From assembly GCA_964504535.1 (NCBI GenBank), contig CAZDED010000007.1, positions 12,353 through 76,352 of the forward strand: a stretch of DNA of 64,000 bases. Reading direction: 5' to 3'. The translations under genes were made by a program, and so were the position numbers. Below the pieces are notes generated by a model. That model made no database searches and was not told the DNA's origin. It saw nothing but the letters and a program-made list of their open reading frames with translations. Shown one piece after another: positions 4,291-54,654 of the stretch; the stretch's first letter is position 1; each line of letters opens with the position of its first letter. Origin of the DNA: an uncultured Gammaproteobacteria bacterium. GTDB lineage: Bacteria > Patescibacteriota > Microgenomatia > Levybacterales > GWA1-39-11.

Positions 4291-5310
4291 TTAATATTCA
4301 TTCCTATTAATAGACTTCTTGTATAGTTCCAAATTCTCTAAAGCAACTCCGGTTCCCCTTACTACACAGTATAAAGGATCCTCGGCAATGTATGCAGGAA
4401 CTCCTGTTTCACGAGTAATATATTTATCAAGATTTCGAAGAAGTGTTGTTCCCCCCGAAAGGACTATTCCTTTGTCGATGATGTCAGATGCCAATTCCGG
4501 TGGTGTCATTTCAAAAGTTTCGCGGATCGCACCAACCATTGCTTTTATGACCGGTTGGATAGCTTCGTTTACTTCGAATTCCGTTACCTCGGTAGAACGA
4601 GGTAACCCTGTGACACTATCTCTACCCTTGACTTCCATCTTTTTTGTCGAAGTTGAAGCTGGGATAGCGTTTGCCATAGTAACCTTTATTTCTTCAGCAG
4701 TCTGCTCTCCTACCATCAGATTGAATTTGCGTTTTATGTATGCTCCAATCGACTCTTCAAGCTTATCTCCAGCAACTCGAATTGATTTATGAACCACAAT
4801 TCCTCCCAAAGAAATGACTGCAACATCTGTTGTTCCTCCACCGGCATCAAGGATCATGTGTCCATTTGGCTGTGCTATTGGAATTTTGGCTCCAATTGCG
4901 GCGGCCAATGGCTCTTCTATGAGGTAGACTGAACGTGCTCCAGCGGCCATTGTTGCATCAAGCACTGCTCTTTTTTCGACCTGGGTGATGCCTGATGGGA
5001 TACACACCATAACCTCAGGCTTTATAAATCTACTTTTTCCCGTAACTTTCTCTATAAAGTATGCAAGCATAGCCTCAGTTATGACGTAATCTGCTATGAC
5101 TCCGTCTTTCAGTGGCCTCGTTGCAACAATATTACCGGGAGTTCTACCCAACATCTCTTTTGCTTCACTACCTACTGCAACGACTTTATTATCATCTGCT
5201 CTGACAGCAACGACTGTTGGTTCATTGAGCACTATTCCCCGACCCGCAACATACACGAGAGTATTTGCGGTACCAAGATCTATTCCAATACGTTTGTTAA
5301 ATATGTTCAT
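4291..5310 (-). CDS. mreB: rod shape-determining actin homologue MreB
   Basis: 339 aa. N-terminus GIDLGTANTLVYV, nucleotide-binding DAGGGTTD, and C-terminal RGTG are the MreB actin-fold signatures. Confidence 0.9.
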   Translation of the reverse strand: MNIFNKRIGIDLGTANTLVYVAGRGIVLNEPTVVAVRADDNKVVAVGSEAKEMLGRTPGNIVATRPLKDGVIADYVITEAMLAYFIEKVTGKSRFIKPEVMVCIPSGITQVEKRAVLDATMAAGARSVYLIEEPLAAAIGAKIPIAQPNGHMILDAGGGTTDVAVISLGGIVVHKSIRVAGDKLEESIGAYIKRKFNLMVGEQTAEEIKVTMANAIPASTSTKKMEVKGRDSVTGLPRSTEVTEFEVNEAIQPVIKAMVGAIRETFEMTPPELASDIIDKGIVLSGGTTLLRNLDKYITRETGVPAYIAEDPLYCVVRGTGVALENLELYKKSINRNEY

Positions 5311-5343
5311 AATCTAGTTTTTAGTTATTAGGAAAAGGAATAG

Positions 5344-5700
5344 TTACTGTTTATTTGAGCTCATTCGATTTAACATTTTACAAATCTCAGTTAATATTTT
5401 CTCAATACCAATATAGTCTACTTCTTCACCATAATTCAATCTTTTTGCTAACAACAATTGTGTTTCTAATTCAAGTGCTGACCCATAAGCTATCTTGTAA
5501 AAATGCTTATAGTCTTTTTCTGACTGTCTTCCAAACCCTTCTGCTATATTTGAAGGAATACTTATAGCAGCTCTTTTTAATTGAGATATGAGTCCAAATT
5601 GCTCATCTTTTGGGAATTGTTTTGTAAGGATATATACAAGTTCTACCAACTCAATTCCTTTCTGCCAAACAATTAATTCTTTATACGAAGTTATCTTCAT
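5344..5700 (-). CDS. four-helix-bundle protein (23S rRNA intervening-sequence protein family)
   Basis: 118 aa. The pattern EQFGLISQLKRAAISIPSNIAEGFGRQS...Y..FYKIAYGSALELETQL matches the TIGR02436/PF05635 family. This family is common in CPR genomes. Confidence 0.7.
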   Translation of the reverse strand: MKITSYKELIVWQKGIELVELVYILTKQFPKDEQFGLISQLKRAAISIPSNIAEGFGRQSEKDYKHFYKIAYGSALELETQLLLAKRLNYGEEVDYIGIEKILTEICKMLNRMSSNKQ

Positions 5701-5875
5701 ATCTAACTTGTCCTACTTCAAACAACTATTCCTATTCCTGACAACTGATAACTATATCGCAAGATATTACTACTGCATCATTTCTGGCTGCTATATTTAC
5801 TATATCATCTTAACTAAATTAAATCGATAGGTGCATGTTGCGCTCAAGCTAAAAAGTGTATACTATTGGTAATAC

Positions 5876-7120: not shown

Positions 7121-7579
7121 TCAGTTCTCTCGGGATTCCTCCGTTGGATGTTTCCATCGCCCATTTACCCATTCGCTGGGATCGACTCTCACCTTGGGGT
7201 GATAATCCTCATCCAGAAAACGTTGGCGTGCGATTTGAAACTGCCGCCTTTCGTCGTTCTGCCTTTCGGCATACAGACGGCAGATACGGTGGGTAACTCC
7301 CATGCATATCAGCGAAGCTGTGAAGCTTGCGATAAATATCACGGAATACCACCCGGACTCCTGGCTGGTGATCAACCCGCCCACTATGGCTGCGGCCGTG
7401 GGCCCGCCAAAGAAGACGCATACCTGAAGGATTTGGTATTTCCACTGCATCCTTCTGCCAGGTGTACGGTAGCCCATTGCCCCCGACAGCATGCAAAGCA
7501 AGCCGATCAGGATTATGGTGCTAGCCGCCAACTGGAATTCCGGCGTGCTGTAGAAGAGCGCGCTTTGATCCTCAGTCAC
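7121..7579 (-). CDS. hypothetical membrane protein in high-GC island 2
   Basis: 152 aa with 3-4 predicted TM segments. GC-rich codons. It follows the 180-aa ORF with a 3-nt gap, suggesting an operon. Confidence 0.4.
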   Translation of the reverse strand: MTEDQSALFYSTPEFQLAASTIILIGLLCMLSGAMGYRTPGRRMQWKYQILQVCVFFGGPTAAAIVGGLITSQESGWYSVIFIASFTASLICMGVTHRICRLYAERQNDERRQFQIARQRFLDEDYHPKVRVDPSEWVNGRWKHPTEESREN

Positions 7580-7582
7580 GTA

Positions 7583-8125
7583 CTAATCCGTTCCTTTTGT
7601 TGTGAGGAAACCCTCACTTGTATGCGGAAGTGTGCCGACGTAGATGACAATCCGCCCCCGGTAGTCGACGTACTGATCTATCTGTTTCTTGGCAGCTTCC
7701 GCTGCCACGAATTTGACGCTGTACGTCGTCTTGAGTTGGTTCTCATCCGAGGATGCTTGCGCATCCTTATTGTGGGCTTGGTAGACAACCTCCTTGGCTA
7801 CCTCGAACATCGTGTCGAGGAGCTGAGGATCCGGGCTGAAGCCCGGTGCTACGCAGGTCTCAAAGACCAAGCCACGGATAGTAACAACGGTACCATCCTC
7901 TCCCTGAACCGTGATGGTCTCAGAGAGTGGTTTTGTGACGGCTTTTGCGTTGACGCAATCGGCAGGAGCTGCTCCTACCGCAATTGCGGTGTTGGTGTTC
8001 TCCTCTTGGTTGGCCAGAGCCATTAGGGCGATGCCCGTTGTGGCAAGCACTGCCAAGAAAAGGACTGTGATGAAGGTGCGGGGTCCAAATGACATGATGG
8101 TTCCTCCCATAGAACCGCTAGGCAA
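7583..8125 (-). CDS. hypothetical secreted protein in high-GC island 2 (likely start at internal MSFGPRTF...)
   Basis: A signal-peptide-like N-terminus (FITVLFLAVLATTGIALMALA) is followed by a soluble domain. GC-rich codon usage. Confidence 0.4.
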   Translation of the reverse strand: MPSGSMGGTIMSFGPRTFITVLFLAVLATTGIALMALANQEENTNTAIAVGAAPADCVNAKAVTKPLSETITVQGEDGTVVTIRGLVFETCVAPGFSPDPQLLDTMFEVAKEVVYQAHNKDAQASSDENQLKTTYSVKFVAAEAAKKQIDQYVDYRGRIVIYVGTLPHTSEGFLTTKGTD

Positions 8126-9343: not shown

Positions 9344-10807
9344 ATGGACTTATTGTATTCGTTTAGCTTCAAAAGAGGGCTTCTTGTTCTTTGTGTTTTG
9401 CTGTTTTTCTTCACGATAACCACCAAACAAACTCATGCACTCTCATTCTCTTCAGCAAGTGCTACTCTCACAACCTCACGTCCATCAGCTGCAAGCCCAT
9501 TCAGCTCTGTTGGAGCTGTTAATGATAGCGTTCTAAATATTTTCAACAATGGCTCTCGATTTTTGGCTTCAGATTCAGCCAAAGTCGTACGGGCAACCGG
9601 TACTTCTAATACTGGTCTCAATGTTGCCTCACAGTCAGCCGATCTTCTCAAAGTATTTCTGACAAATGGACTTTCAACGCTTGCCGGTGCGGGAGCTGAT
9701 ATACTTGTTGTTCCTGTTACAGCTATGCATCAAGTTGGTTTTACCCCAAATTCGCCAATACCAAGTGGAGGAAAAATAATAATTTCGTATCCTGGAACAT
9801 TCCAAAATACTGCATCCCCTTCAGCAACAACATTTTCATTCAACAATCTTGTATCTGGCAATGTTAAATGTTTTCCGACAACTGCTTGTAGCGGCTCCAT
9901 CACTATCTCATCCAGTGGTATTCCAACTATTACCTTAGTCACGGGCGCTATACAACCTGCAGGTACTGTTATAACAGTATTTATCGGTTGCTCTGCAATT
10001 ACTGGATCAGCATGTACTACGCAGGTTCCAACTCTTATAAATCCTACAAAGACAAATTCCACTGCCGCTGGCGCTGATATTTGGAGAATAGGAGTGGCTT
10101 CAACAGATGCAAGCAACAATCCAATTGATAATTCAACTATCGCTATCGGTACGATAGAATCAGTAACCGTCCGTGCCACTATTGACCCAAGTCTCACATT
10201 TATCATTAGTGGTGTTACAGATGGACAAGCAGTCAACACTGGAAACACCACTGGATGCCTACAAGTTGAAACAACAAATACTGGTATAACTTCAACTGCC
10301 ACTGATGTTGGACTTGGAAGTCTTGCAAGCGTACCATCAGCAGGTACAAAACTTAACAATATTGCAGCACAACTTTTGGATGTCAGGACTAATGGAGCAA
10401 ATGGATACTCTATTACTGCAACTTCATCAGGGCCTCTTTCAAACCCTTCAACTGGTTTTTCAGTCAATAGTAGCACCACACCGTTGGTTTTCCCTTCAAC
10501 AGGCCATTTCTTTGGAATGCATCCCTGTGGCGCAGATGTAGATAGAATAAATTGGATTCAGGGTTCTACTTCACAACTTTGCAACACATATGTTCCAGGT
10601 GCAAATCCTGTCTGTAAATACGCATGGCCTAATACTGCCCCTATGCTCGTTGCTCAAAGATCAGCTGGTCCAATTGGTACTGGTGCATCATGTGCATCGG
10701 GTGGCTGCGGACTCACTTCAGTATCCTATGCTGCTACACAAGATGTCTCTCTTCCCCCTGGAATCTATCAATCAGTTATCACGTACGTAGCAACGCCGTC
10801 TTTTTAG
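9344..10807 (+). CDS. secreted WxL-like domain protein (Tyr variant), paralogue A
   Basis: 487 aa with an N-terminal signal peptide. A mid-domain GANGYSITATSSG motif and the C-terminal PPGIYQSVITYVATPSF are positionally equivalent to the two WxL motifs of Firmicutes WxL domains, with Y in place of W. Paralogous to 12001-13458 and 27319-28122. Confidence 0.55.
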   Translation: MDLLYSFSFKRGLLVLCVLLFFFTITTKQTHALSFSSASATLTTSRPSAASPFSSVGAVNDSVLNIFNNGSRFLASDSAKVVRATGTSNTGLNVASQSADLLKVFLTNGLSTLAGAGADILVVPVTAMHQVGFTPNSPIPSGGKIIISYPGTFQNTASPSATTFSFNNLVSGNVKCFPTTACSGSITISSSGIPTITLVTGAIQPAGTVITVFIGCSAITGSACTTQVPTLINPTKTNSTAAGADIWRIGVASTDASNNPIDNSTIAIGTIESVTVRATIDPSLTFIISGVTDGQAVNTGNTTGCLQVETTNTGITSTATDVGLGSLASVPSAGTKLNNIAAQLLDVRTNGANGYSITATSSGPLSNPSTGFSVNSSTTPLVFPSTGHFFGMHPCGADVDRINWIQGSTSQLCNTYVPGANPVCKYAWPNTAPMLVAQRSAGPIGTGASCASGGCGLTSVSYAATQDVSLPPGIYQSVITYVATPSF

Positions 10808-10907
10808 TTATTAGTTATTAGGAATAGGACTAGTTACTAAAAAGGGCTGGACAAGAAGAATTAAATACGTATAAACTAAGAACTATTCCTGATAACTAAT
10901 AACTAAC

Positions 10908-11906: not shown

Positions 11907-12000
11907 TATTGCTTGATCAATCTCAAATTACTCCTAATCCTGACAACTAGTAACTAATTTCATTGACAAATAGAACCGATATTGTCTTAAATGGTATAGG

Positions 12001-13458
12001 ATGAAATTTTCGGCAAAAATTATTTTTGTCTTTATTTTATGTGGTTTTTATCTTGCCACAGGAACCGCTTATGCCGATGACTTATCAAATGCAAGCGTAA
12101 CCCTCTCAACCTCACGACCCTCGGCTTCAAGTCCATTATCCGCAGCCGCCACTTCCTCAGACGGAATAATTTCGGTATTCAATAATGGATCCCGATATTT
12201 AGCTTCTGATTCAGCACGGATTATTCAAGGATCAAGTGGTCTTCAAATAGTTGGGGGGCTTCCGGTAGCTTCCCAGTCAGCGTCGCTAACAAGCGTCTAT
12301 CTAGGTTCAAGTGTGGGAGTCGCAGCAGGTGCTGGATCTGACATATTGCAAGTACCAATAACAGCAATGCACACGGTTACCTTTACAACGATAAGTTCGG
12401 TACCCAATGGAGGGAAAATAATAATTACCTACCCAGGCTCGGGCAATAATTCCGCTTCTCCTTCTGCTACAACATTTGCTTTTAACGGTCTTCCAAATTC
12501 AACTGCAGCGGTTAAAGCAGCCAACGCTACCGATTGTAACGCTGTGACCGTGAGTGCACCAACAATTACCTGCACGACAAGCGCAATCATCCCAGCGGCG
12601 ACTCAGGTGACAATTTTTATCGGATGCACAGCTGTTAGTGGATCATGTACTACTCAAGCTCCTTATTTGATAAATCCAACAAAAAGCAATCAATCAGCCG
12701 GAACAGCTGATTCTTGGAGAATTCAAGTAAGCACTGCAGATGGCTCCAATAATGTTATTGATTCGCGTACTCTTGCTGTTGGCACAATTGAATCGGTTAC
12801 TGTCCGTGCAAACGTCGACCCATCCCTCACTTTTACCATTGCGGGTATTAATAATGGTGTTGCGGTCAATACGAATAATACGACGGGGTGCCTGCAGACA
12901 GAGCTAACAAGTACTGGTATAAATGCAACTGCAACAGATGTTAATATGGGCACGCTAGCTAACTCACCAAGTGCTACCAATACAACTGTAAGTAATATTT
13001 CTGCCCAATTACTAACAGTGACTACAAATGGAGCTACAGGATATGTGGTGACAGCGACATCGTCTGGACACCTGAGAAATCCTTCTACGGGATTTTTCCT
13101 GACGGATGCAGCTACCCCACAAGCTTTCCCAGCCTCAGGAGCAAATTTCTATGGATTTCATGCCTGTGGCCTTGATACGTATAGCGCTGGAATAGGTACT
13201 ACCTTCTGGAATTCAAGTGCCTCAGATACTAATTGCAATACTTATATAACAGGTTCCTCGGGAAATATTTGTAAATATGGATGGCCTACAACTTCTACGC
13301 CAATTAATATTGCTTCTGACACAACGGGACCAATAGGAAATGCTGTTGTTGCGGGAAGCGGCTTAACCTCAGTGAGCTATGCAGCTGGTGCTGATCCAGC
13401 AGTACCTCCGGGACAATACACGACTGTTGTGACTTACGTAGCAACTCCTTCATTCTAG
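12001..13458 (+). CDS. secreted WxL-like domain protein (Tyr variant), paralogue B
   Basis: 485 aa with a signal peptide. GATGYVVTATSSG and the C-terminal PPGQYTTVVTYVATPSF match paralogue A. The N-terminal motif LSTSRPSASSPLS...VFNNGSRYLASDSA is also shared with A. Confidence 0.55.
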   Translation: MKFSAKIIFVFILCGFYLATGTAYADDLSNASVTLSTSRPSASSPLSAAATSSDGIISVFNNGSRYLASDSARIIQGSSGLQIVGGLPVASQSASLTSVYLGSSVGVAAGAGSDILQVPITAMHTVTFTTISSVPNGGKIIITYPGSGNNSASPSATTFAFNGLPNSTAAVKAANATDCNAVTVSAPTITCTTSAIIPAATQVTIFIGCTAVSGSCTTQAPYLINPTKSNQSAGTADSWRIQVSTADGSNNVIDSRTLAVGTIESVTVRANVDPSLTFTIAGINNGVAVNTNNTTGCLQTELTSTGINATATDVNMGTLANSPSATNTTVSNISAQLLTVTTNGATGYVVTATSSGHLRNPSTGFFLTDAATPQAFPASGANFYGFHACGLDTYSAGIGTTFWNSSASDTNCNTYITGSSGNICKYGWPTTSTPINIASDTTGPIGNAVVAGSGLTSVSYAAGADPAVPPGQYTTVVTYVATPSF

Positions 13459-13499
13459 TTGTCAGTTGTCAGGAACACGAATAGTTAATGAGATTGTAA

Positions 13500-15365: not shown

Positions 15366-15668
15366 TCATGCGTGGCCGGTACTAAGATGCTGCCAGCTCA
15401 GATCTTGAGGTGGATCCGATACGATCTCTGTTCCCTCTTCCAAGAGGTTATCAGCTACTCTTGCAAGCAGCTGAAGGGTTCGGCGCCTAGAACTAGGAGC
15501 CGCCTTGATGAGCACTTTGGCATACTCACAAACGGCGTCTGCGAGGGCGTCACCCGCGGAGATCTCCTCCCACTCATTTCCACTTGCAATGGCGGCAGCT
15601 ACCGCTGCCTTATCCAGCGCAAGCAATTCTTTGGTGTAATTTGACCGCCAGTCATGAGGCATGATCAT
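15366..15668 (-). CDS. hypothetical protein in high-GC island 3
   Basis: 100-aa ORF with GC-rich codons and an Ala/Leu-rich, helical-looking sequence. No motif recognised. Confidence 0.3.
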   Translation of the reverse strand: MIMPHDWRSNYTKELLALDKAAVAAAIASGNEWEEISAGDALADAVCEYAKVLIKAAPSSRRRTLQLLARVADNLLEEGTEIVSDPPQDLSWQHLSTGHA

Positions 15669-15703
15669 CTCCCTTGCTGGTTTACCAGCTTGTTTGTACC
15701 CGC

Positions 15704-16144
15704 CTACGCGGTTGGGCTTTGCTCATCCGGCCGGAGGGCGCTGAGGCATTCCTGGACGGTGACCTCTCGAAGTCTCTTTCCGCACTTCTTGAGAAGTTCG
15801 ACCTGGAACTGCTGGATCCAAAGGCACGGGATCTGCTCTAGGTCCCTCGTGATTACTTCTCCCAGTCCGACCTGGAGCACATGAAAGCCTTGTGCCCGCA
15901 GAAAGCGGAGTTCCGGGCAATTGTTTGCCAGGCGGGGATCTCCTACCTTTTTGTCGGCAGGAAGGCTCCTGAGCCAGGTCACGAATTCCTCGTCAGTTTC
16001 CATGACCCTGGTGATCTCTTCAACTTCAGACATTACTACTCTCCTTGAGTTGTGTACTCGTGATGTGCGTGCCCCACCGCTTGTAAACGGTGTGGCTTGA
16101 CCTGCGTTGTTAATGTGCTGTTGGAACAGCACCTTCATACGCAT
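15704..16144 (-). CDS. hypothetical protein in high-GC island 3 (start uncertain; internal MSEVEEITRV... gives about 109 aa)
   Basis: ORF in GC-rich DNA between two perfect GC palindromes (15311-15330 and 16147-16164). Confidence 0.3.
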   Translation of the reverse strand: MRMKVLFQQHINNAGQATPFTSGGARTSRVHNSRRVVMSEVEEITRVMETDEEFVTWLRSLPADKKVGDPRLANNCPELRFLRAQGFHVLQVGLGEVITRDLEQIPCLWIQQFQVELLKKCGKRLREVTVQECLSALRPDEQSPTA

Positions 16145-17413: not shown

Positions 17414-17791
17414 TTAGTTTCTATGTACATTCTCTAAGATGCTTTTTACTTTCTTAAGTAAATCTTCATGTGATATCTGATACTTCAAAATATAATCAAT
17501 TGCTCCTCTATTGAGCGCTTCCTTTACTAATTCGTCATGAGAAAAATTAGTAAGCATGGCAACTGGTATACCTTTTATAGCCTCGTCTTCCTTTAAAGCC
17601 CTCAGAACATCATTTCCACTCATATCAGGCATCATTTGATCCAAAAGTATAAGATCAAATTTTTCCGACTTTGCAGAGGCCAACGCTCCTTGACCGTTAT
17701 TGGCTATAGTTACCTCATACCCTCCCTGCTTCAAAACAGTCTCAAATACTGTAGCAGTATCAAGCTCGTCATCAACAAGAAGAATTTTCAT
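17414..17791 (-). CDS. single-domain response regulator (REC only, CheY-like)
   Basis: 125 aa. ILLVDDE, the phospho-acceptor LILLDQMMPDMSG, and the conserved Lys region; no output domain. Confidence 0.85.
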   Translation of the reverse strand: MKILLVDDELDTATVFETVLKQGGYEVTIANNGQGALASAKSEKFDLILLDQMMPDMSGNDVLRALKEDEAIKGIPVAMLTNFSHDELVKEALNRGAIDYILKYQISHEDLLKKVKSILENVHRN

Positions 17792-17967
17792 ATTCTAGTT
17801 TTTAGTTGTCAGGAATAGGAATAGTTAAATTTTGATAACTGCTCCTCATTCTAATAACTAGTACCTATTTTAGGTTACCCGCTATCCACAAAAAATGCAA
17901 GAGGCTTGAATTAATAATTACCCTATAATATTGATCTTTGAGGTAAAATGATGTAAAATAGGGCCCT

Positions 17968-44866: not shown

Positions 44867-45030
44867 TTGCATTTCAAGGAAGCGCGCCCGAATTTTTCGA
44901 ACGAAGTGAAGACGGGGGATTCCTCGCAAATTTGTCGAGGAGGGGGTGAAATCACACACTTCACGAGTGAGAAAAATTAGCGACCCTTGATATGCAAGAG
45001 GCTTTGGTACTTTCTCCGGCCAGAAAGTGC
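44867..45030. repeat. conserved structured intergenic element, copy 2
   Basis: Aligns to 2984-3148 at about 85% identity. Substitutions in both hairpin stems are compensatory (AATTTTGC/GCAAAATT becomes AATTTTTC/GAAAAATT; GTTCTTTCG/CGAAAGAAC becomes GTACTTTCT/AGAAAGTGC). Confidence 0.5.
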
Positions 45031-45093
45031 AATAAATAAATAGACTAGTTAAGAAACCCAGAGGGTCGTCACTCAATCTACTGAGTCATATAT

Positions 45094-47814: not shown

Positions 47815-48513
47815 ATGAATTTTAAAAGATTTGTCGCAACTTCTTTTGTAACAGCAGCTTTTCTTGCAACAGCAGGAAGTGCTATTGCTTCTGGTACCGG
47901 ATACGGTACAAGTAACTGCCAAGTAATCTACGGTGGAGGACAAGTATGTCCAACTACTCTACAATTCTCTATAGATAAAAAAGTTCTTGCACCAACAAAA
48001 GGTGGAACATTCGTTGACAACCTGGGATTTAATGACGCAAAATTCCAACCAGGTGATCAGGTTTCATTTAAAATAAGCCTTAAAAATACTGGGGACAAGA
48101 CAATTGATCAAATTACTATTGTTGATACTCTTCCAGCTTATCTTACATTTACATCTGGGCCTGGAACATATGATGCAACTTCAAGAACAGTTACCTATAT
48201 TATAAAAAATATTGCTGCCAACCAATCAAATGATCAGACAATAGTTGCAACTATTGCAAATGTTGATGCCCTTCCAAAAGATCAAGGAGTTATGTGTCTT
48301 ACAAACAATGTAAAAGGTAATGACAATCAAAGTGATGTAGCAAATGACAGCTCTGCTTTTTGTATCCAAAAAGAAGCTATGACTCCAAAAGTATTCACAA
48401 CAGTTCCACCTAAATCTATTCCAAATACTGGACCTGAAATGCTTCCTTTGCTCGGACTTATTCCAGCTGGAATCGCAGGATTTACACTTCGAAAAAAATC
48501 AAAACTCGGCTAA
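47815..48513 (+). CDS. DUF11-repeat surface protein with LPXTG-like sorting signal (IPNTG)
   Basis: 232 aa. Signal peptide, a DUF11-like segment (ISLKNTGDKTIDQITIVDTLPAYLTFTSG), then IPNTG + hydrophobic stretch + RKKSKLG at the C-terminus. Confidence 0.6.
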   Translation: MNFKRFVATSFVTAAFLATAGSAIASGTGYGTSNCQVIYGGGQVCPTTLQFSIDKKVLAPTKGGTFVDNLGFNDAKFQPGDQVSFKISLKNTGDKTIDQITIVDTLPAYLTFTSGPGTYDATSRTVTYIIKNIAANQSNDQTIVATIANVDALPKDQGVMCLTNNVKGNDNQSDVANDSSAFCIQKEAMTPKVFTTVPPKSIPNTGPEMLPLLGLIPAGIAGFTLRKKSKLG

Positions 48514-48938
48514 GCGTATACTCGTTAGGCTTGAGGTTAGAGAAGGCAGCTTTCATAAATTCTCCCCCAAATTTCCAAAAGCTCTCTTCCCTGATCTTGA
48601 AGATTAGGAAAGTAGTATGAAGCAGACTATCCAATAGCTGGATAACTTTGCTTATAAGTACCACTTTGTTCTTTGACAATTGGTATACAGAAAAATTATT
48701 TCGGTTGACACTTTGGTGTCGGATTGAGCGTTCCGTTGGCATGAAAGCTGCACAACGGGCCGCTCAACCCGGCACTGTAAGTTACAACCGGAAAAACAAC
48801 ACTAAGGAGAAGAACATATTGGAGGCTCGATCTCCGCCCACCATTCCCCAACCGCAAGGCTGGGTCAAAAGAATGTAAGCGGTATCGTCCGCCTACATTC
48901 TTCCACTAAGTCAGAGTTCAGTTCCGGAGGAAAACACC

Positions 48939-49949
48939 TTGTCCAAGACTTGGATCGCTATCACCTCCATCGTTCTGACGATGGCCGTGATGATCGGTGG
49001 AGGCTGGGTTATCGCCCACCTTCCTAGCACGTCCGCCAACGCGGACGGCCCCGACGGAAGCCCCACGGCTTCCGCCACCGCGACCGTCACTGCGACGGCC
49101 ACCCAGACGCCCACTCCGGGCACCGACAAGAAGGACCAGCCGCCGGTGCCAAGCGCCGTCTGCCGGCTCGACAAGGTGGGCACATTCGCCGAGGTATCCT
49201 CGGCTGGCCCACAACGCATCGAAGTTGGCGGGGGGGGAACCCAGCACGTTGACTTCTATCCTGACCGCGGTGTCCCATCCGTTTCCTACATCGTAGGACC
49301 CGGTAAGGTCATAGTGGCACATGGATTTGGGAGCATCTGGGAGGGCAACCTTCCGGACTGTGCTCAGTTCAAATGGGTCGCCGATGCGACCGAATACGCT
49401 CTCGGCAACGTGGGCAACAATCGGCCGGACCGGCTTACGAAAGGTCACAGCGGCATCGTCATCGACATGAGGAGCAATCCTCCTGAAATCGTTGCGAACG
49501 CTCTCGGCCTCAACACGGCGCAGATCGTAAATCTGCTCGCAAAGCACGTGAAGGGAATGGAACTCACCGATAGCCAGAAGCAAATGCTGATGACTATCCG
49601 GATGGCCGCCGGCGTCACAACGCCTGCCGCCGGATCCAATACTGCTACGTGCAGCGAAGGTACCCGCGCCGACCACAAGCCGGCCAAGGATACCGCGTGG
49701 GACATTACGCCTACAGACTCCTTCCGCGTGGTCAACGTCTGGTCCAACCAGCGTGACCCCAACCTGGGAGACCACAAGCTCCTTCTCAAGCCTGGTGAGA
49801 GCGCAAGCCTCATGGGCGGCGGCGGTGCCGCCTGGTCCTTCCCGGCAAGCTGTGGCGACGCTGCCCAGGCCGCCTATGAGGCCAATACGAACCCGGCCAT
49901 AAGCCTGGCTCAGTACAAGGCCTACGTCGAAAAGGGCACCATGCCCTAG
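48939..49949 (+). CDS. hypothetical membrane-anchored protein in high-GC island 4 (N-terminal TM, Thr/Pro/Ala linker, C-terminal domain)
   Basis: 336 aa with strongly GC-rich codons (about 65% GC region). The strand was chosen because it gives TM, linker and globular domain; the antisense ORF looks like noise. Confidence 0.4.
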   Translation: MSKTWIAITSIVLTMAVMIGGGWVIAHLPSTSANADGPDGSPTASATATVTATATQTPTPGTDKKDQPPVPSAVCRLDKVGTFAEVSSAGPQRIEVGGGGTQHVDFYPDRGVPSVSYIVGPGKVIVAHGFGSIWEGNLPDCAQFKWVADATEYALGNVGNNRPDRLTKGHSGIVIDMRSNPPEIVANALGLNTAQIVNLLAKHVKGMELTDSQKQMLMTIRMAAGVTTPAAGSNTATCSEGTRADHKPAKDTAWDITPTDSFRVVNVWSNQRDPNLGDHKLLLKPGESASLMGGGGAAWSFPASCGDAAQAAYEANTNPAISLAQYKAYVEKGTMP

Positions 49950-50112
49950 ACATGAGTACCTCTGTATACCAAGCTCGGGATGCCCCCTACTGGGGGGCAT
50001 CCCGGCACAAGAGGGGAGGCGCTAACACCGCCTTCGAAGAACAAACCGGGCTTGCCCGGCAGAATGCTTCGGAGTCGATTGCCTCCCCCCTTTCCCCCTG
50101 TACATAAATATT

Positions 50113-50343
50113 TTGTGTATAGAGCCGAAAGGTATGAAAATTTTACAAATTACAGTAATTGCACTTATAGGAATAGGCCTCATTGGGGTCATATATTTCC
50201 TTGGTTCAAAGCATATCCGCAATGAAGCGATTGACAAATGTTTGGCTTCCGGAAAGACGCAATTTGTGAGAGATGGACAAACGCTTACTGGTCCTGATGG
50301 ATACTGGTACCAGTTCTGCATGAAAGAAAAAAACATTAAATAA
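50113..50343 (+). CDS. small single-TM protein (likely start MKILQITVIALIG at 50134)
   Basis: 69-76 aa with one hydrophobic helix, directly upstream of the GT2 gene. Confidence 0.3.
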   Translation: MCIEPKGMKILQITVIALIGIGLIGVIYFLGSKHIRNEAIDKCLASGKTQFVRDGQTLTGPDGYWYQFCMKEKNIK

Positions 50344-50348
50344 GCCGT

Positions 50349-51236
50349 ATGAAAAAACCTTTAATATCAGTCATCATGCCCGTCTACAATGCAGGAAAAT
50401 ACCTAAAACCTGCGATTGATAGTATTTTGGCACAAACATTTCAAGATTTTGAACTGATTCTTATCGATGATGCATCCTCAGATGGTTCACGTGAAATATT
50501 GGAACAATATAAAAGACGGTTCCCATTTAGAGTTAAAGTCATAGAATTACGCAAAAACCTGAATTGCGGGGGAGATAGATGTGCCAATGAAGGACTGAAG
50601 ATTGCAAAAGGAACATTTATCGCCAGAATGGATGCTGACGATGTAGCTCATAAAAGCAGACTTCAAAAACAAGTTGAGTTTCTCAAGAAGAATAAAGATG
50701 TTTTCTTGGTGGGTTCAAATGCGTATGTGATTGATAAAAAAGGAAAAATAATTGGTGAAAAAAATGAACCATCAACCCACAAAGAAATATATAATTCCTA
50801 TTTCTCTTTTCACCCACTTATCCATCCCACGTGCATGATGAGAAGAAATTTCAAGAATAAAAAATTTAGCTACAAACTTTCATACAATGCAAATAACGAC
50901 TACCTGACTTTCTTTACTCTTATCTGTAGTGGTGCAAAATTTGCCAACCTCAAAGATAAGCTCTTGTACTATAGAATTCATGGAAAGAACGATACATTTG
51001 TCCACATGAAGCAAAAATTCGTAAATACCATGAAAATCAGAATAAAAATGATATCAAAACATGGATACAGACCAAGCAAACGAGCTGTTGCTTTGAGTAT
51101 TCTCCAAACAACCGCATTTTTGTTACTTCCCGAAAAAGTGCTTTTCAATATGTACCTTACGAGCCGCGGGATCATAAAAAGACCGGTATTTAATTTTTCA
51201 TATAAAAATTTTGTATCAGTGAGACTTAGTGCCTAA
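50349..51236 (+). CDS. family 2 glycosyltransferase
   Basis: 295 aa. SVIMPVYNAGKYL, the DxD motif LILIDDASSDGS and RMDADD are classic GT-A/GT2 signatures. Confidence 0.8.
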   Translation: MKKPLISVIMPVYNAGKYLKPAIDSILAQTFQDFELILIDDASSDGSREILEQYKRRFPFRVKVIELRKNLNCGGDRCANEGLKIAKGTFIARMDADDVAHKSRLQKQVEFLKKNKDVFLVGSNAYVIDKKGKIIGEKNEPSTHKEIYNSYFSFHPLIHPTCMMRRNFKNKKFSYKLSYNANNDYLTFFTLICSGAKFANLKDKLLYYRIHGKNDTFVHMKQKFVNTMKIRIKMISKHGYRPSKRAVALSILQTTAFLLLPEKVLFNMYLTSRGIIKRPVFNFSYKNFVSVRLSA

Positions 51237-54200
51237 TATGAATTTAGTTAAGAAAATATGGAAAAACTTCTCATACCCCCTGCTTCTCATAGTCATTGAA
51301 GCAGTACTTTTTGCGGCAAACTACACTCCAAAAACATTCCTCATCGGCTGGGACAATGTAATGCCTGAGTTCAATCTGAGGTTAAATTACCTCAGAGCTT
51401 TAAGTGCAGTATGGCAAGACTATAGAGGGCTTGGAACATTGGACGGGATGGCACATGCTGCCAATCTCTTCCACGTTATATACATTAACATTCTTAGTTT
51501 CTTCCTGCCTCAAAACTTGCTTCGCTACTCATTTATTGACCTTACCCATCTTATTGGTGGAATCGCTTTTTACTTTTTAGCTGTAAAGTTATTTAAAAAC
51601 AAACATGGAGCATTTTTAGGAGCTCTCTTTTACCTTTTCAATCTTGGGGTTATCCAAATGTACTTTGCACCCCTTGAGGTGTTTACAATGCACTTTGCCG
51701 CACTTCCCGTGATGGGTCTTGCGATACTCAACGCATTAAAGAAAAAGTCTAAAACCTCCTTATTTGTTCTTGGAGCGGCAAGCCTACTTACAACTCCGCA
51801 GGCTTTTGTTCCAACAGTATTTATCTCCTACTCACTTTTTGTTGCCCTACTTGTGGTTTTTTCATTCAAAAAAACCTTGATCAATAGATTTATTCTAATT
51901 TTAGGAATTCTCTTTATTACCAATGCTTTTTGGTTGCTTCCTTTTTCATATACTGCCGTTTTTAAATCGAAAGTCATCCAAAACACAAGGATCAATGAAT
52001 TCTCATCTGAAGAGATCTATTACCGCAACAAAGCAAAGGGTACTCTAACTGACGTGATGACTCTTAAGGGATTTATGATAGATACTATCGAATATGATTC
52101 ATTTAAGAAAGGAAATTTTAACTTCATGCAGAAGTGGCTTGACCAAACAAAAACTGTCCCATTTACAGTAATTTCAACAATTATCGCAGGGCTTATGATA
52201 CTTGGGTCATTTCTTGTCATCCGCTTCAGACTTAGGTCTCTCTACCCTTTTTTGGCTACAAACCTAATCTCACTCGTTCTTCTTGCCAATAATACTCCTG
52301 GCTTGACAGTAATTAATGACGGGCTAAGGACAATTTTCCCACTTTTTGGTGAGGCCTTCCGCTTCCCATTTACTAAGTTCATTACAGTTTTTGCATTTAC
52401 ATACGCTATGCTTTTTGGACTTGGTGTGAGTTTTGCCATCAAATTTTTTCTCAACGGCTTTTCTTCAGTCCTTAAACAGGTAGAATTTTTAAAACATAAG
52501 GCAATACTTCTATCTTTAATATTCTACATTCTGATTATCGCAATCATCTCTGCCTCAATTGTGTGGTATGCGAAACCAGCATTTACCGGCAACTTCACCT
52601 CACCATTCTTAAGGCTTTCAGTGCCTACAGACTATCAAGCCACAATGACATACTTTAATGGCCAAAATCCAGATGGAAGAATTCTAACATTCCCACTCAC
52701 TAGTTTTTGGAATTGGGAATATCGAAATTGGGGTCACAGAGGTTCAGGCTTTTTGTGGTATGGAATTTCCCAGCCCCTTCTTACTAGAGCATTTGATCCA
52801 TGGAGTAACTTTAACGAACAACTCTTCAATGAGTTTGCAACGTCTTATTCAAATAAGAATATTGCTTCATTTGATACATTACTTAAGAAATATGATATCT
52901 CATACATATTAATCGATAAGACTCTTCTGAACACTATCTCTCCAAAACCAGTTGATTATGGCGAGATTGAGGAATTTTTAGGTAAAAGCTTATTGCTCAA
53001 AAAAGATGCTTTATTCGGTTCTCAACTGATATATAAGTCAAAAGTATTACCTTCGAAGGTGTCACAATTGCCACTACGTAGTACGGTCAGTTCGTATCCT
53101 GCTGTAACACAACAGTCAATAGATGGTTTAATTTCATCATTAGGTAACTATTATGAATCAACAAACAATCCAGACATCACAACTCCCCTGCCTTCACTAT
53201 CTACATTGAAACTTCAAAAAGATAACCAATTCAATTGGATATACAAGAACAATGTCTTAACATTTAACTCAAAAAATATTCCCTTCGATTCTAAGGGTAA
53301 AAAAATCCTGCTCCCTTCTCTATTTAAGGAAGAATTTTTAATACCTGTTAACGTTTCGGCTGGGGAAAATACAGTTACCATAACACCCATATATCCAAAT
53401 GTTGTCATAAATGGTAAAAGCTTGACGGTGCCTGTAAAACCCATTGTTATCCATACAGAAAATGTCATCTATCCAACCAAAATAAGTTTTGTAGATACCA
53501 ACAATACTGTCGAAATTGGTGAAAATATCAATAGTTTTCTTCTGAATAACTTTACCAACACCATAAAAATTAGTGATGGGATCAATGAAGAATATGCGAC
53601 TATAGATACAACTATTATTGATAAGTCGCCTGTAATCTTTGACCTTCCTACTGACAAAATAACTACATTTGAAATTTCAGTGCCAACTTTTGATACTGAG
53701 CTTGGTAAGGCAAATTATGTGAAGAACAAGCAGTACATCATCACAAAAGCATCTGATCAGTCAAAGATCAAAAACAACGCATCAAACTCAAAAACTACGG
53801 TTACCAAAAATGGTGTAAGCCTTGAGGCCATAAATGACACGACATCACTTGATATATATCTTGATACTCTATACCACGCGGCATCATATGCTGTGGTTGG
53901 CTCCATTAACCACAAAAAGGGTCTCCCTGTAAATTTTTATGTTGATAATCCTAAAGAATCAAAACCAATTCTAGAGACAAAAATGGGATCTGGTCAAAAT
54001 ATTGCGATAGTTGCCGGCACCGATACGTATTCAACAGGATACGGATTTCATTTCGGGGTAAAATCAGTAGGAAGTGAGGAGGCTAACTCACAAATAAATG
54101 AGGTAAACATCTTTCCTATACCTCAAAAGACAATTGAATCCGTACGTATTTTTAACCCAGACTCTTATATATTATCCGGTCAAACCTCAGAAAAGGATAG

Positions 54201-54654
54201 TCTTTCCTATACAAAAACAAGTGATTTCGTATTTGAGACTGTGGCCAGGAATGACTCTATCCTTGTACTATCCGAGTCCTTTGACAGAGGATGGAAAGCT
54301 TACGACACAGGAGACAGTGGACAGGAGACAGGAGTTAAAAAAACACTCGCTTCAATATTTCCGTTCATTTTTGGGAAAGAAGTAAAGTCACATGTCTTAG
54401 TCAACAACTGGGCAAATGGGTGGATACTGGATAACAAACAACAAACCTCAAACAATAAACTAAATTTAGTCTATTTGCCTCAATATCTTGAGATTTTGGG
54501 ACTTTTATTTCTTGGGATTCCGTTACTTTTTATTCTCATTTCTTTATATGAAAGATTCATACTACCTATTACTACCAATGTGGATGCATTCTTTGATCTA
54601 AAAGCCAACGCGCTTCGCAAGAAAATAAACAAAAGTCTCCATCCTAATTCCTAA
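51229..54654 (+). CDS. large polytopic membrane protein with big extracytoplasmic domain (possible YfhO-like glycan-modifying protein), translationally coupled to the GT2
   Basis: 1141 aa. About 12 N-terminal TMs, a roughly 600-aa soluble region, and a C-terminal TM. It overlaps the GT2 stop by 8 nt. Function inferred only from architecture and neighbour. Confidence 0.55.
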   Translation: MPNMNLVKKIWKNFSYPLLLIVIEAVLFAANYTPKTFLIGWDNVMPEFNLRLNYLRALSAVWQDYRGLGTLDGMAHAANLFHVIYINILSFFLPQNLLRYSFIDLTHLIGGIAFYFLAVKLFKNKHGAFLGALFYLFNLGVIQMYFAPLEVFTMHFAALPVMGLAILNALKKKSKTSLFVLGAASLLTTPQAFVPTVFISYSLFVALLVVFSFKKTLINRFILILGILFITNAFWLLPFSYTAVFKSKVIQNTRINEFSSEEIYYRNKAKGTLTDVMTLKGFMIDTIEYDSFKKGNFNFMQKWLDQTKTVPFTVISTIIAGLMILGSFLVIRFRLRSLYPFLATNLISLVLLANNTPGLTVINDGLRTIFPLFGEAFRFPFTKFITVFAFTYAMLFGLGVSFAIKFFLNGFSSVLKQVEFLKHKAILLSLIFYILIIAIISASIVWYAKPAFTGNFTSPFLRLSVPTDYQATMTYFNGQNPDGRILTFPLTSFWNWEYRNWGHRGSGFLWYGISQPLLTRAFDPWSNFNEQLFNEFATSYSNKNIASFDTLLKKYDISYILIDKTLLNTISPKPVDYGEIEEFLGKSLLLKKDALFGSQLIYKSKVLPSKVSQLPLRSTVSSYPAVTQQSIDGLISSLGNYYESTNNPDITTPLPSLSTLKLQKDNQFNWIYKNNVLTFNSKNIPFDSKGKKILLPSLFKEEFLIPVNVSAGENTVTITPIYPNVVINGKSLTVPVKPIVIHTENVIYPTKISFVDTNNTVEIGENINSFLLNNFTNTIKISDGINEEYATIDTTIIDKSPVIFDLPTDKITTFEISVPTFDTELGKANYVKNKQYIITKASDQSKIKNNASNSKTTVTKNGVSLEAINDTTSLDIYLDTLYHAASYAVVGSINHKKGLPVNFYVDNPKESKPILETKMGSGQNIAIVAGTDTYSTGYGFHFGVKSVGSEEANSQINEVNIFPIPQKTIESVRIFNPDSYILSGQTSEKDSLSYTKTSDFVFETVARNDSILVLSESFDRGWKAYDTGDSGQETGVKKTLASIFPFIFGKEVKSHVLVNNWANGWILDNKQQTSNNKLNLVYLPQYLEILGLLFLGIPLLFILISLYERFILPITTNVDAFFDLKANALRKKINKSLHPNS

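Follow-up and report, generated by a model that had tools for sequence, protein, structure and literature searches.

The window analysed here is a 64-kb stretch of DNA that contains, at 48700-50100, a GC-rich island made up of one gene for a putative surface protein and the non-coding arms on either side of it. The island lies between a DUF11 gene and a pair of genes for a GT2 and a predicted GT-C glycosyltransferase. Its features and those of its neighbours are the following:

47815-48513, + strand: surface protein with DUF11/CLIPPER repeats and an IPNTG sorting signal at the C-terminus, GC3 0.17 (Pfam DUF11, 1.9e-13; TIGR01451)
48514-48699, + strand: AT-rich intergenic stretch, GC 0.37 (sequence; motif positions)
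48700-48938, + strand: structured 5' leader, GC 0.51 (near-invariance, MFE, consensus fold)
48939-49949, + strand: 336-aa ORF for a hypervariable putative surface protein of an undescribed two-domain family (homologue family, fold, selection)
48951-49019, + strand: hydrophobic helix, residues 5-27 (Kyte-Doolittle maximum 1.97 over residues 6-24; helix in the AF2 model)
49020-49160, + strand: disordered Thr/Pro/Ala stalk, residues 28-74 (pLDDT below 50; alignments)
49161-49598, + strand: domain 1, residues 75-220, with C75/C141 (alignment A1; pLDDT 82-96)
49599-49649, + strand: inter-domain linker, residues 221-237 (breakpoint of the L024/L025 mosaic allele, sliding-window identity)
49650-49946, + strand: domain 2, residues 238-336, with C238/C305 (alignment; sliding-window identity)
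49963-50098, + strand: structured 3' element, GC 0.63, with a 15-bp hairpin and a branched domain (alignments, MFE)
50092-50343, + strand: hairpin in which CCUUUC pairs with a GAAAGG Shine-Dalgarno, followed by a small one-TM ORF (folds; ORF list)
50349-51236, + strand: GT2 glycosyltransferase, EpsE/TuaG-like, GC 0.35 (Pfam, 6.2e-36; NCBIfam; synteny)
51229-54654, + strand: 1141-aa membrane protein with a predicted GT-C fold, AftD-like (AF2 pLDDT 87, pTM 0.84; Foldseek)

At 60.2% GC (62.0% within the 336-aa ORF), the island stands well above the window as a whole (40.1%). The initial annotation had recognised this GC-rich island, although its figure of about 65% was slightly high. In 1-kb windows the island is indeed the strongest compositional outlier (0.623, the second being 0.535), though a 375-nt ORF at 1787-2161 also has 62% GC; several further GC-rich ORFan islets lie elsewhere in the window. 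The borders first placed at 48700 and 50100 are good to about 50 nt: GC in 100-nt windows is 0.39 at 48650-48749 but 0.52 at 48700-48799, reaches a maximum of 0.72-0.74 within 49000-49149, and drops to 0.45 (50050-50149) and 0.31 (50100-50199). GC1, GC2 and GC3 of the ORF are 0.60, 0.52 and 0.74, compared with a GC3 of 0.17-0.35 (about 0.3) in the adjacent genes. Recoding the protein with the codon usage of the window yields 47% GC, so amino-acid content accounts for only part of the excess. Across the island, GC skew is for the most part slightly negative, with a C-rich coding strand, and the idea of a G-quadruplex was dropped, since the island contains no canonical G4 motif.

The ORF starts with a TTG codon, 8 nt past GGAGGA. 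Homology searches identified 29 homologues of its product, and 264 representatives at E<=1e-3. Inside an allele class, dN/dS is 0.19-0.28, and pN is far below pS in the + frame; 48939-49949 is a real gene on which purifying selection acts. An antisense 360-aa ORF (48918-50000), which matches no Pfam family, was rejected because the homologue family, the confident fold and the low pN relative to pS belong to the + frame only; it is the usual shadow ORF of GC-rich DNA. The protein has no family match in Pfam, NCBIfam or PHROGs, and a profile search of the PDB reached a best E of only 0.017. Likewise, Foldseek comparison of the AF2 model with PDB and BFVD gave best E values of 0.012 and 0.013, with a TM-score of 0.12, and a homologue search with profile A3 (79 sequences) added no relatives.

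The AF2 model (pLDDT 81 overall, above 90 in both domains) bears out the earlier proposal of a membrane-anchored protein with an N-terminal TM segment, a Thr/Pro linker and a Cys-containing domain, which correspond to the helix (residues 5-27), the stalk (28-74) and the two domains that follow. The N-terminal helix may serve as a membrane anchor or as a long signal peptide; residues 33-35 form an A-N-A motif. Together with the conserved Cys pairs, this hydrophobic helix suggests an extracytoplasmic location. A Thr/Pro linker had been rightly noted before, but the letters then quoted are off by one or two at the start; the linker actually reads ...TASATATVTATATQTPTPGTDKKDQPPVPS. The stalk terminates in KDQPPVPSAV, and this junction is kept at the nucleotide level between allele classes. 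The "Cys-containing C-terminal domain" of the initial annotation is a Cys-bearing folded region as described, but comprises two domains rather than one, with four Cys distributed as two per domain (C75/C141 and C238/C305).

Domain 1 is characterised by the motifs IEVGGGGxQHxDFYP, GFGSIWEG, DATxYA and GHSGxVxD, and includes a G8 homopolymer in the window's allele (49230-49237). It occurs alone in 18 relatives, and in P0098 it stands behind a Ser/Thr kinase and a TM segment. Domain 2 carries the motifs RVVNxWSN, KLLLxPGE and GGGxxWxxPxxC, comes in three or more sequence types and is swapped as a patch of about 350 nt. It is found alone in 27 relatives, in tandem arrays of up to six copies, fused with SH3_3 in P0062, and behind a cellulase-family hydrolase in P0110. 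The partners in these fusions, namely a Ser/Thr kinase, a hydrolase of the cellulase family and SH3, lead us to infer that the two domains are binding modules, with glycans or cell-envelope components as the probable ligands.

The non-coding arms are themselves distinctive, combining strong structure with a conservation above that of the synonymous sites of neighbouring genes. Within the AT-rich stretch, a long imperfect hairpin lies 3' of the DUF11 gene (about 48525-48607), and a block conserved in six related loci ends in TTGACA (48673) and TGGTATACA (48682-48689). This block is a possible promoter, which would place the transcription start near 48697; a consensus scan of the + strand found no canonical sigma-70 site. 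The leader is near-invariant among loci whose flanking genes range from dS 0.3 to saturation. Its MFE is -94.9 kcal/mol (z = -4.9), with an extended 73-nt hairpin (about 48711-48784), three small hairpins and a GUUCC stretch predicted to pair with the Shine-Dalgarno GGAGGAA (48926). A small coding ORF in the leader (48648-48878) was ruled out by indels in relatives that are not multiples of 3. The predicted long structured leader, the conserved TTG start and the sequestered Shine-Dalgarno suggest post-transcriptional control.

On the 3' side, the segment 49950-50145 has an MFE of -88.1 kcal/mol (z = -6.5), and the structured element shows compensatory GC<->AU changes at column pairs 96:130 and 110:115 of alignment A4. 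Its covariance model, R1, recovered copies in the window's own clade only; with 0.67 effective sequences the model is narrow, so the absence of copies elsewhere says little. At gathering thresholds, the sole Rfam match in the window is a tRNA-Thr (235-308), and a relaxed search over 48400-50400 returned only chance-level matches. The small one-TM ORF downstream begins at ATG 50134 (69 aa) or TTG 50113 (76 aa) and is specific to the clade, with 64-97% identity in L006, L007, L009, L016 and L024/25.

Both neighbouring gene sets are conserved. The DUF11 gene is found upstream in L001, L007, L009, L015, L019-L021, L024, L026 and L027; in most loci it forms a conserved boundary on the left of the variable interval. 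The downstream GT2 scores best with the EpsE/TuaG models of NCBIfam (ArnC-type only 4e-8) and is closer to these cytoplasmic enzymes than to polyprenyl-phosphate sugar synthases, so that a donor pathway from GT2 to GT-C is an assumption. The 1141-aa protein consists of an N-terminal TM domain, beta-sandwich ectodomains and C-terminal TM helices. Foldseek ranks AftD first (6W98, E=1.4e-19), followed by STT3, PglB, AglB, DPY19 and AftA, and the predicted structure shows this neighbour to be a GT-C glycosyltransferase with an AftD-like architecture. Pfam PF11847 has no match in the window's protein and scores below the cut-off in orthologues (E=0.0012 and 0.035); a precomputed match exists for some orthologues. 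A nearly invariant D42 and an invariant E47 are candidates for the catalytic acidic residue that GT-C enzymes have in their first extracytoplasmic loop. The gene is low in GC and its relatives are widespread in Patescibacteria, with named homologues in Levybacteria, Levyibacteriota, Patescibacteria and Roizmanbacteria.

In more than 20 independent public loci, taken from assemblies in NCBI, ENA, JGI and Logan, the family gene is followed by the GT2 and then by the gene for the large membrane protein (1050-1160 aa). DUF11 and Rho also lie upstream in most of them, and the GT2 directly follows the family gene in every locus that reaches that far. All 20+ loci, including the most divergent, L020 and L028, were retrieved in low-GC CPR genomes (Levybacteria-like). 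The family gene nevertheless has a GC of 0.53-0.67 and a GC3 of 0.56-0.81, versus 0.32-0.38 and 0.31-0.40 in the adjacent GT2; L026 has a weaker anomaly (0.46-0.49). The same locus and the same high GC extend to relatives with only 53-60% GT2 identity, and the anomaly persists across lineages even where the synonymous sites of the neighbouring genes have reached saturation. Paralogue arrays occur within the island in L005, L010, L013 and L026, some lineages having 2-3 intact paralogues. The interval between DUF11 and GT2 is a general hot spot, and in other lineages it also holds a TraG/DUF87 ATPase and toxin-antitoxin genes.

A GC-rich family gene at one locus in 20+ low-GC CPR loci takes a chimera out of consideration and argues against a recent inter-phylum transfer. 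The abrupt compositional shift at both borders is what would be expected had a GC-rich contaminant been mis-joined to a CPR contig. Both junctions, however, recur with near-identical arms in assemblies from different projects (L006, L007, L009, L016, L024 and L025), and up to 11 contigs, as long as 13.9 kb, encode this very protein or members with an identity of 90% or more to it. An assembly artefact thus has a negligible probability, and the island is real, a point on which the initial annotation had made its reading depend.

That reading was a transfer from an actinobacterial host or neighbour. The codon usage is indeed foreign to the surrounding genome (GC3 0.74 vs about 0.3), but a GC3 of 0.74, with C3 at 0.47 and G3 at 0.27, falls below typical actinobacterial values. 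Thr/Pro linkers are common in actinobacterial secreted proteins, and the closest solved structure to the GT-C neighbour is mycobacterial AftD; the AftD-like gene, however, is itself low in GC and widespread in Patescibacteria. No actinobacterial homologue of the family was found, and neither a tRNA nor a repeat marks the borders. The best hits are instead CPR proteins of similar GC at the same syntenic position, an outcome that the initial annotation itself had named as speaking against its proposal. Given that locus and GC are shared down to 53-60% GT2 identity, a recent transfer from a high-GC Gram-positive is very unlikely.

The family protein is far more variable than its surroundings. Strains whose flanking proteins are 90-98% identical carry island alleles that are only 39-43% identical; the flanking proteins of L007 are 85-98% identical to those of the window, and its island protein only 39%. 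In the species-level clade, identity is 89% or more for the GT2 and 43-83% for the family protein. Comparison of dS shows that cassette and flank histories are decoupled in both directions. Between L009 and L016, flank dS is 0.02-0.03 and island dS 0.27, whereas between L007 and L009 the flanks are saturated (pS 0.75, dS 1.9) and island dS is 0.38. For the pairs window/L006 and L001/L017, at dS of about 0.5, island and flanks have congruent genealogies and GC is kept. L024 equals L007 up to about 49590, and from there to the stop codon it resembles the allele of the window (78-98%, mostly 90% or more). In this single precisely mapped mosaic (L024/L025), exactly domain 2 has been replaced, with breakpoints in the inter-domain linker and near the stop codon. 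In P0016, the first 29 residues are as in the window at an overall identity of only 41%. The blocks that alleles have in common are the non-coding arms, the KDQPPxPSAVC junction and the inter-domain linker. These alignments show deeply divergent allele classes that are exchanged, whole or domain by domain, among strains and sister lineages by homologous recombination.

Allele classes A and B differ in how their composition evolves. At class-A third positions, 41 S->W changes stand against 33 W->S changes, where flank-like rates would predict about 4:1 (p<=3.5e-5), and S->W changes occur at a rate of 0.17-0.19 per GC site, versus 0.36-0.46 in the flanks. Class A is thus near compositional equilibrium. 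Class-B alleles, with 43 S->W and 15 W->S changes, are compatible with ordinary decay towards low GC. The high GC of the cassette is a long-standing property and no mark of recent foreign origin.

Of the features expected of a genomic island, atypical composition and codon usage are present (GC 0.60 vs 0.40; GC3 0.74 vs about 0.31). The borders carry no mark of mobility: the window's sole tRNA lies at 235-308, and no repeat and no integrase-domain gene adjoins the island. An empty site in close relatives was not found, a homologue being present in all 20+ related loci; nor was a donor lineage with close homologues, the best matches lying in syntenic CPR loci. Searches for plasmid, phage and viral-contig homologues (tblastn of phage and plasmid records, viral contigs, PHROGs) gave no match, and a phage or plasmid origin was rejected on these grounds. 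No repeat in the 64-kb window involves any island segment; att sites were dropped for this reason, as was the target of a diversity-generating retroelement, there being no template/variable pair.

Import could also be repeated, the family residing in GC-richer organisms, either other phyla or GC-richer CPR, with alleles captured by recombination and then decaying slowly. Some of the 264 representatives are fused to domains of GC type, such as the P0098 kinase (GARP 0.42, FYMINK 0.12), and P0110, P0137 and P0139 have similar compositions. The class-B excess of S->W changes, the hot-spot nature of the DUF11-to-GT2 interval and the other GC-rich ORFan islets in the window point the same way. Against this stand the near-equilibrium of class A, the window/L006 and L001/L017 pairs, which track their flanks without GC loss, and the low-GC CPR context of every locus retrieved, L020 and L028 included. 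Moreover, the conserved arms are confined to the recipient clade in the search with the narrow R1 model, and no donor context, plasmid copy or phage copy was seen. Repeated import as the source of the anomaly is unlikely on this balance; an ancient foreign origin of the cassette is possible, as is an external GC-rich reservoir of family alleles.

Selection at the level of RNA or translation could likewise keep GC high, either through a structured, stable mRNA for an abundant coat (S-layer-like) protein or through rare GC-ending codons that pace translation or secretion. Leader and trailer included, the inferred transcript covers the same stretch as the high GC, and the structured leader, conserved TTG and sequestered Shine-Dalgarno point to post-transcriptional control; in other bacteria, structured leaders give S-layer mRNAs their long half-lives. 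However, GC1 and GC2 are raised as well, which suggests pressure on all codon positions, and a protein of about 30 kDa with a TM anchor is an atypical S-layer protein. The window's ribosomal protein S1 gene, with an ordinary GC3 of 0.33, speaks against GC-ending codons being preferred throughout the genome where expression is high, and translational selection as a genome-wide habit was rejected. We consider the RNA-level explanation rather improbable.

Upkeep of GC by a recombination-tied process such as GC-biased conversion, or by selection on DNA or mRNA, is the most likely explanation and the least secure step of our account. The narrower proposal that a GC some 20-25 points above the genome is actively held up in a recombination-linked manner, by GC-biased gene conversion or by selection for recombination-proficient DNA, in a surface-protein gene that CPR strains swap all the time, is tentative and in our view somewhat doubtful. 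Recombination hot spots of other bacteria are usually AT-rich, and we know of no case of bacterial GC-biased conversion of such size. If it were true, the locus would parallel the Borrelia vls phenomenon in CPR bacteria and be the strongest recombination-tied local elevation of GC in any bacterium known to us, in a cassette that would also bear two binding domains with new folds and, as RNA structures, two new cis-regulatory elements.

Our main reading, to which we assign a probability of about 0.6, is that the island is a transcription-unit-sized cassette, native to a conserved locus of Levybacteria-like CPR, that encodes a recombining surface protein and whose GC is held by a recombination-linked process or by selection. 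The cassette would comprise structured leader, ORF and structured trailer immediately upstream of the GT2/GT-C (AftD-like) pair. Its product would be held at the cell surface by the N-terminal helix and raised by the Thr/Pro stalk, possibly O-glycosylated, so as to present two disulfide-stabilised domains that would bind ligands, probably glycans or parts of the cell envelope. It may act with the neighbouring extracytoplasmic glycosylation machinery, as acceptor or partner. Variability would reflect diversifying selection at the surface, by phage or through host-cell recognition in an episymbiont, while recombination-tied GC-biased conversion, or selection on DNA or mRNA, would keep GC high.

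CPR/Patescibacteria are thought to live attached to other cells, and their surface molecules are almost unknown. The locus provides a concrete candidate that is conserved widely: its putative surface protein, with two domains, is linked genetically to a GT2/GT-C pair, and the allele classes and domain swapping of this protein are the population-genetic signature expected of a molecule that meets phages or hosts. Its two uncharacterised domains recur in kinases and glycoside hydrolases outside the lineage, and the two conserved structured RNA elements may regulate envelope genes. The island is also a test case for a base composition far from genome equilibrium where horizontal origin, as the customary explanation, fails in its simple form, and a caution for island-finding and contamination filters applied to metagenome-assembled genomes, since a sharp GC island can be native.

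Several known systems resemble parts of this locus. In actinobacterial O-mannosylation, a GT2 (Ppm1) and a GT-C enzyme (Pmt) act on Thr/Pro-rich linkers, and here, too, GT2 and GT-C genes lie beside a putatively secreted or anchored protein with a Thr/Pro/Ala linker. In contrast to that system, the GT2 is nearest to EpsE/TuaG and not of the Ppm1/DPM1 type, the GT-C is AftD-like with no PMT entry among the 50 PDB matches listed, some family members have almost no linker, and glycosylation is only putative. The 1141-aa protein matches the fold of mycobacterial AftD over its full length (TM-score 0.41-0.47), with a GT-C domain and beta-sandwich ectodomains, but is 10% identical in sequence and encoded by a low-GC CPR gene; CPR bacteria are not known to synthesise arabinan.

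Another parallel is the C. difficile S-layer cassette, for which Dingle et al. reportedly described recombinational switching in 2013, and which is not known to be a GC outlier. Like slpA and other mosaic surface loci, the island holds divergent allele classes at one conserved chromosomal position, with decoupled genealogies and mosaic alleles. In both systems, recombination uncouples the cassette from the strain background and glycosylation genes adjoin; cassette type 11 carries a glycan cluster (PMC6254364). The protein families are unrelated, however, with a predicted TM anchor here versus CWB2 wall-binding domains there; single domains are swapped here as well, and an S-layer role is only putative.

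The closest precedent is the vls locus of Borrelia, with a G+C of 49.1% versus about 28.6% in the genome (PMC11499132). The island differs from vls in its unrelated protein, in having no silent-cassette array within 64 kb, in exchange between strains rather than within a cell, and in its C-rich coding strand without positive GC skew or canonical G-quadruplex. Both are variable surface-protein loci with a G+C far above that of the genome, a feature that is kept across lineages in the case described here.

The 336-aa open reading frame (ORF) at 48939–49949, termed here, together with its homologues, the family gene, lies in a compositional island that the initial annotation placed correctly at 48700–50100. 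The 100-nt GC profile shifts at both borders, stepping from 0.39 to 0.52 at 48700, reaching a maximum of 0.72–0.74 around 49000–49150 and declining to 0.45, then 0.31, between 50050 and 50200. GC content is 60.2% across the island and 62.0% in the ORF, compared with 40.1% in the window. The locus comprises the following features:

48700–48938: 5′ non-coding arm, a 73-nt extended hairpin plus smaller hairpins (z = −4.9)
48939–49949, + strand: family ORF, 336 aa, TTG start preceded by a GGAGGA Shine–Dalgarno sequence
Residues 5–27 of the 336-aa protein: hydrophobic helix
Residues 28–74: disordered Thr/Pro/Ala stretch
Residues 75–220 (D1) and 238–336 (D2): folded domains, both carrying a conserved pair of Cys residues (C75/C141 in D1, C238/C305 in D2)
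49963–50098: 3′ non-coding arm, one hairpin plus a branched domain; compensatory GC↔AU changes are seen
50349–51236, + strand: glycosyltransferase gene (GT2)
51229–54654, + strand: gene for a 1141-aa membrane protein

Genomic contexts of the family gene, taken from NCBI, ENA, JGI and Logan assemblies, place it in a conserved order: at every retrieved locus it is followed by GT2 (~300 aa) and a membrane protein of 1050–1160 aa, with one or two additional genes intercalated in two lineages. Upstream, most loci encode Rho and a DUF11 sortase-type protein; at one locus (L028) the upstream context differs, yet the family gene still adjoins the same pair. Throughout these loci, the family gene has a high GC content (GC 0.53–0.67, GC3 0.56–0.81) relative to the adjacent GT2 (GC 0.32–0.38, GC3 0.31–0.40); the anomaly is smaller (0.46–0.49) at a further, more distant locus of Levybacteria type. 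The lineages sharing the GC-rich gene are far apart, with GT2 identity down to 50–60% and saturated synonymous sites.

The initial annotation had read the island as actinobacterial in flavour and, if not a chimera, as suggestive of inter-phylum transfer. A recent actinobacterial transfer is rejected, given the GC-rich gene at the same position across distant lineages of the ultra-small Patescibacteria (CPR), and an assembly chimera is rejected as well, since near-identical sequence recurs at both island junctions in six independent assemblies. The best matches of the protein are CPR proteins of similar GC, encoded at the same locus, an outcome that the initial annotation had itself named as refuting its reading. 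Searches of phages, viral contigs and plasmids found no copy of the family gene or protein, no tRNA or repeat was found at the island borders, and the adjoining genes encode the DUF11 protein and GT2, not an integrase; the cassette does not qualify as a recent genomic island. It is instead a native GC-rich cassette for a predicted surface protein of an undescribed family, recombining in modules, tied to the GT2/membrane-protein pair in Levybacteria-like CPR and bordered by conserved, structured RNA-like arms.

Homologues of the 1141-aa protein with a named source come from Candidatus Levybacteria/Levyibacteriota, 'Patescibacteria group' and Roizmanbacteria, which assigns the window to a Microgenomates-type CPR bacterium. 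The nearest public genomes (loci L007, L008 and L009) are titled 'uncultured Gammaproteobacteria bacterium', probably a taxonomic mislabel, as their gene content and named protein homologues are those of Levybacteria/Patescibacteria. The DUF11–GT2 interval is a general accessory-gene hot spot, its content also varying in more distant Microgenomates: L026 (2952–8810) has a TraG/DUF87-type ATPase there, and L027 (3614–7263) has toxin–antitoxin ORFs and an ORFan of GC 0.52. Close relatives also carry a 512-aa sigma-70-like gene between a LysM/M23 peptidase gene and rho (L007 5775–7313, L024 128–1666), which the window lacks at the equivalent site between 46269 and 46315.

The 336-aa protein has no family match in Pfam, NCBIfam or PHROG. 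A word-indexed search returned 29 homologues and an exhaustive profile search 264 representatives, among which D1 and D2, two undescribed and probably extracellular domain families, also recur outside the window's lineage (P0098, P0110, P0062, P0067). In P0098, D1 lies outside the membrane behind a Ser/Thr protein kinase domain (Pkinase, 5.6e-27) as the ectodomain of that enzyme. D2 occurs singly or in tandem arrays of up to six copies; it follows a cellulase-family glycoside hydrolase in two copies in P0110 and accompanies a bacterial SH3 domain (SH3_3) in three copies in P0062. Fusion to kinases, hydrolases and SH3 domains, together with tandem repetition, is typical of extracellular ligand- or glycan-binding modules, and because of this resemblance we infer that both domains have a binding partner on the envelope or beyond it.

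GT2, downstream of the family gene, resembles EpsE/TuaG. The 1141-aa protein itself hits no Pfam family; its own family is common in Patescibacteria, and 296 homologues were counted at E ≤ 1e-5. The AF2 model of the protein (pLDDT 87, pTM 0.84) matches mycobacterial AftD best in Foldseek (6W98, E = 1.4e-19), followed by STT3, PglB, AglB, DPY19 and AftA, and on this predicted structure it is a GT-C glycosyltransferase of AftD-like architecture. That the family gene always adjoins the GT2/GT-C pair, including at L028 with its different upstream genes, argues for a functional tie. The family protein may be an acceptor glycosylated by the pair through its Thr/Pro stalk or, alternatively, a partner that binds the pair's product.

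The cassette is hypervariable, and the genealogy of the island is uncoupled from that of its flanks in both directions. Within a clade sharing at least 89% identical GT2, family proteins are only 43–83% identical, and they fall into at least two allele classes, class A (the window, L014, L006, L022) and class B (L007, L009, L016). Flanking proteins of L007 and the window are 85–98% identical, but their island proteins only 39%; L009 and L016 differ by an island dS of 0.27 despite nearly identical flanks (dS 0.02–0.03). Conversely, island dS between L007 and L009 is only 0.38 despite saturated flanks (GT2 pS 0.75, membrane protein dS 1.9). Two loci, L024 and L025, are mosaic: they equal L007 from the DUF11 gene up to ~49590 (window coordinate), are 78–98% (mostly ≥90%) identical to the window allele from there to the stop codon, and are L007-like once more beyond it. 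As the breakpoint falls in the inter-domain linker (residues 221–237), exactly D2 has been exchanged. Another relative, P0016, combines the window's first 29 residues with a class-B-like body, and some lineages hold two or three paralogues in the island (a D1-only gene, a three-D2-copy gene and a D1+D2 gene). Within allele classes the ORF is under purifying selection (dN/dS 0.19–0.28), though the constraint is 3–5 times looser than on the flanking genes (0.04–0.13). A G8 homopolymer (49230–49237) encoding the GGGG of an IEVGGGG motif is present in the window and L014 alleles and absent in all others; it is possibly a slipped-strand on/off site or a sequencing-error-prone spot.

Both arms lie in the GC-rich stretch and are conserved above the ORF itself and above synonymous sites of neighbouring genes; neither matches Rfam. 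Indels of lengths not divisible by 3 exclude a coding role for the 5′ arm, in which one smaller hairpin is predicted to pair with the Shine–Dalgarno sequence of the ORF. After the 3′ arm, a predicted hairpin pairs CCUUUC with the GAAAGG Shine–Dalgarno sequence of a small one-TM ORF; arm and hairpin together span 49963–50136 (z = −6.5). A covariance model of the 3′ element, itself a narrow model, matches in the window's own clade only. The arms may serve as recombination anchors, as regulatory RNAs or as both; 48700–48938 and 49963–50136 are cis-regulatory RNA candidates for the putative surface-protein gene and for the small-ORF/GT2/GT-C genes.

GC-rich ORFan genes seem to recur in this low-GC genome. 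Three further islets (GC 0.49–0.62) at 1787–2161, 7121–8125 and 15366–16144, all on the − strand, encode ORFs of 100–180 aa that match nothing in Pfam or PHROG; two of the three have N-terminal or multiple hydrophobic helices. An intergenic repeat of ~165 nt (2985–3150 and 44868–45033; 91% identical, abundant hairpin-forming G/C runs) matches no Rfam family at gathering thresholds and may represent a miniature mobile element, a small RNA or a terminator module. A further intergenic motif recurs in both orientations, at times with two copies inverted at a spacing of 55 nt:

5303–5346, 5724–5754, 10793–10836, 10883–10906, 11916–11956, 13444–13487, 17784–17836: motif TAGTTATTAGTTATTAGGAATAGGA

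What is truly odd about the cassette is that its GC anomaly persists. Recoded in the window's codon usage, the protein would yield 47% GC, so amino-acid content accounts for only part of the excess. GC1/GC2/GC3 of the ORF are 0.60/0.52/0.74 (neighbouring genes, GC3 0.17–0.35), with C (0.47) and G (0.27) both enriched at third positions. The pattern reaches too deep across lineages for simple amelioration of a recent import. When substitutions were polarised on three-taxon sets, a test blurred by recombination imports, class A third positions showed 41 S→W and 33 W→S changes against the ~4:1 expected at flank-like rates (p ≤ 3.5e-5), with an S→W rate per site of 0.17–0.19 versus 0.36–0.46 in flanks; class B (43 and 15) was indistinguishable from flank-like decay. 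GC1 and GC2 are also raised, and because the arms are GC-rich too, the pressure is regional. Codon usage is ordinary in the window's gene for ribosomal protein S1. Three candidate explanations were considered. Selection may act on the structure or stability of the mRNA, or at the level of translation. The family might also be imported repeatedly from a GC-richer reservoir, and the composition of the fused domains suggests that GC-richer organisms with the family probably exist. Finally, recombination-linked bias or selection on DNA could hold GC up; Borrelia vls is a documented variable surface-protein locus kept at 49% G+C within a 28.6% genome (PMC11499132).

The cassette resembles vls in this compositional behaviour, but it differs in its new protein family, in having no silent-cassette array within 64 kb, and in lacking GC skew and a G4 motif. 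With the C. difficile S-layer cassette types, one of which is described as bearing a glycan cluster (PMC6254364), it shares the behaviour of a recombining surface-protein cassette; it differs again in its new protein family, and any S-layer role would be hypothetical. The cassette belongs to neither system.
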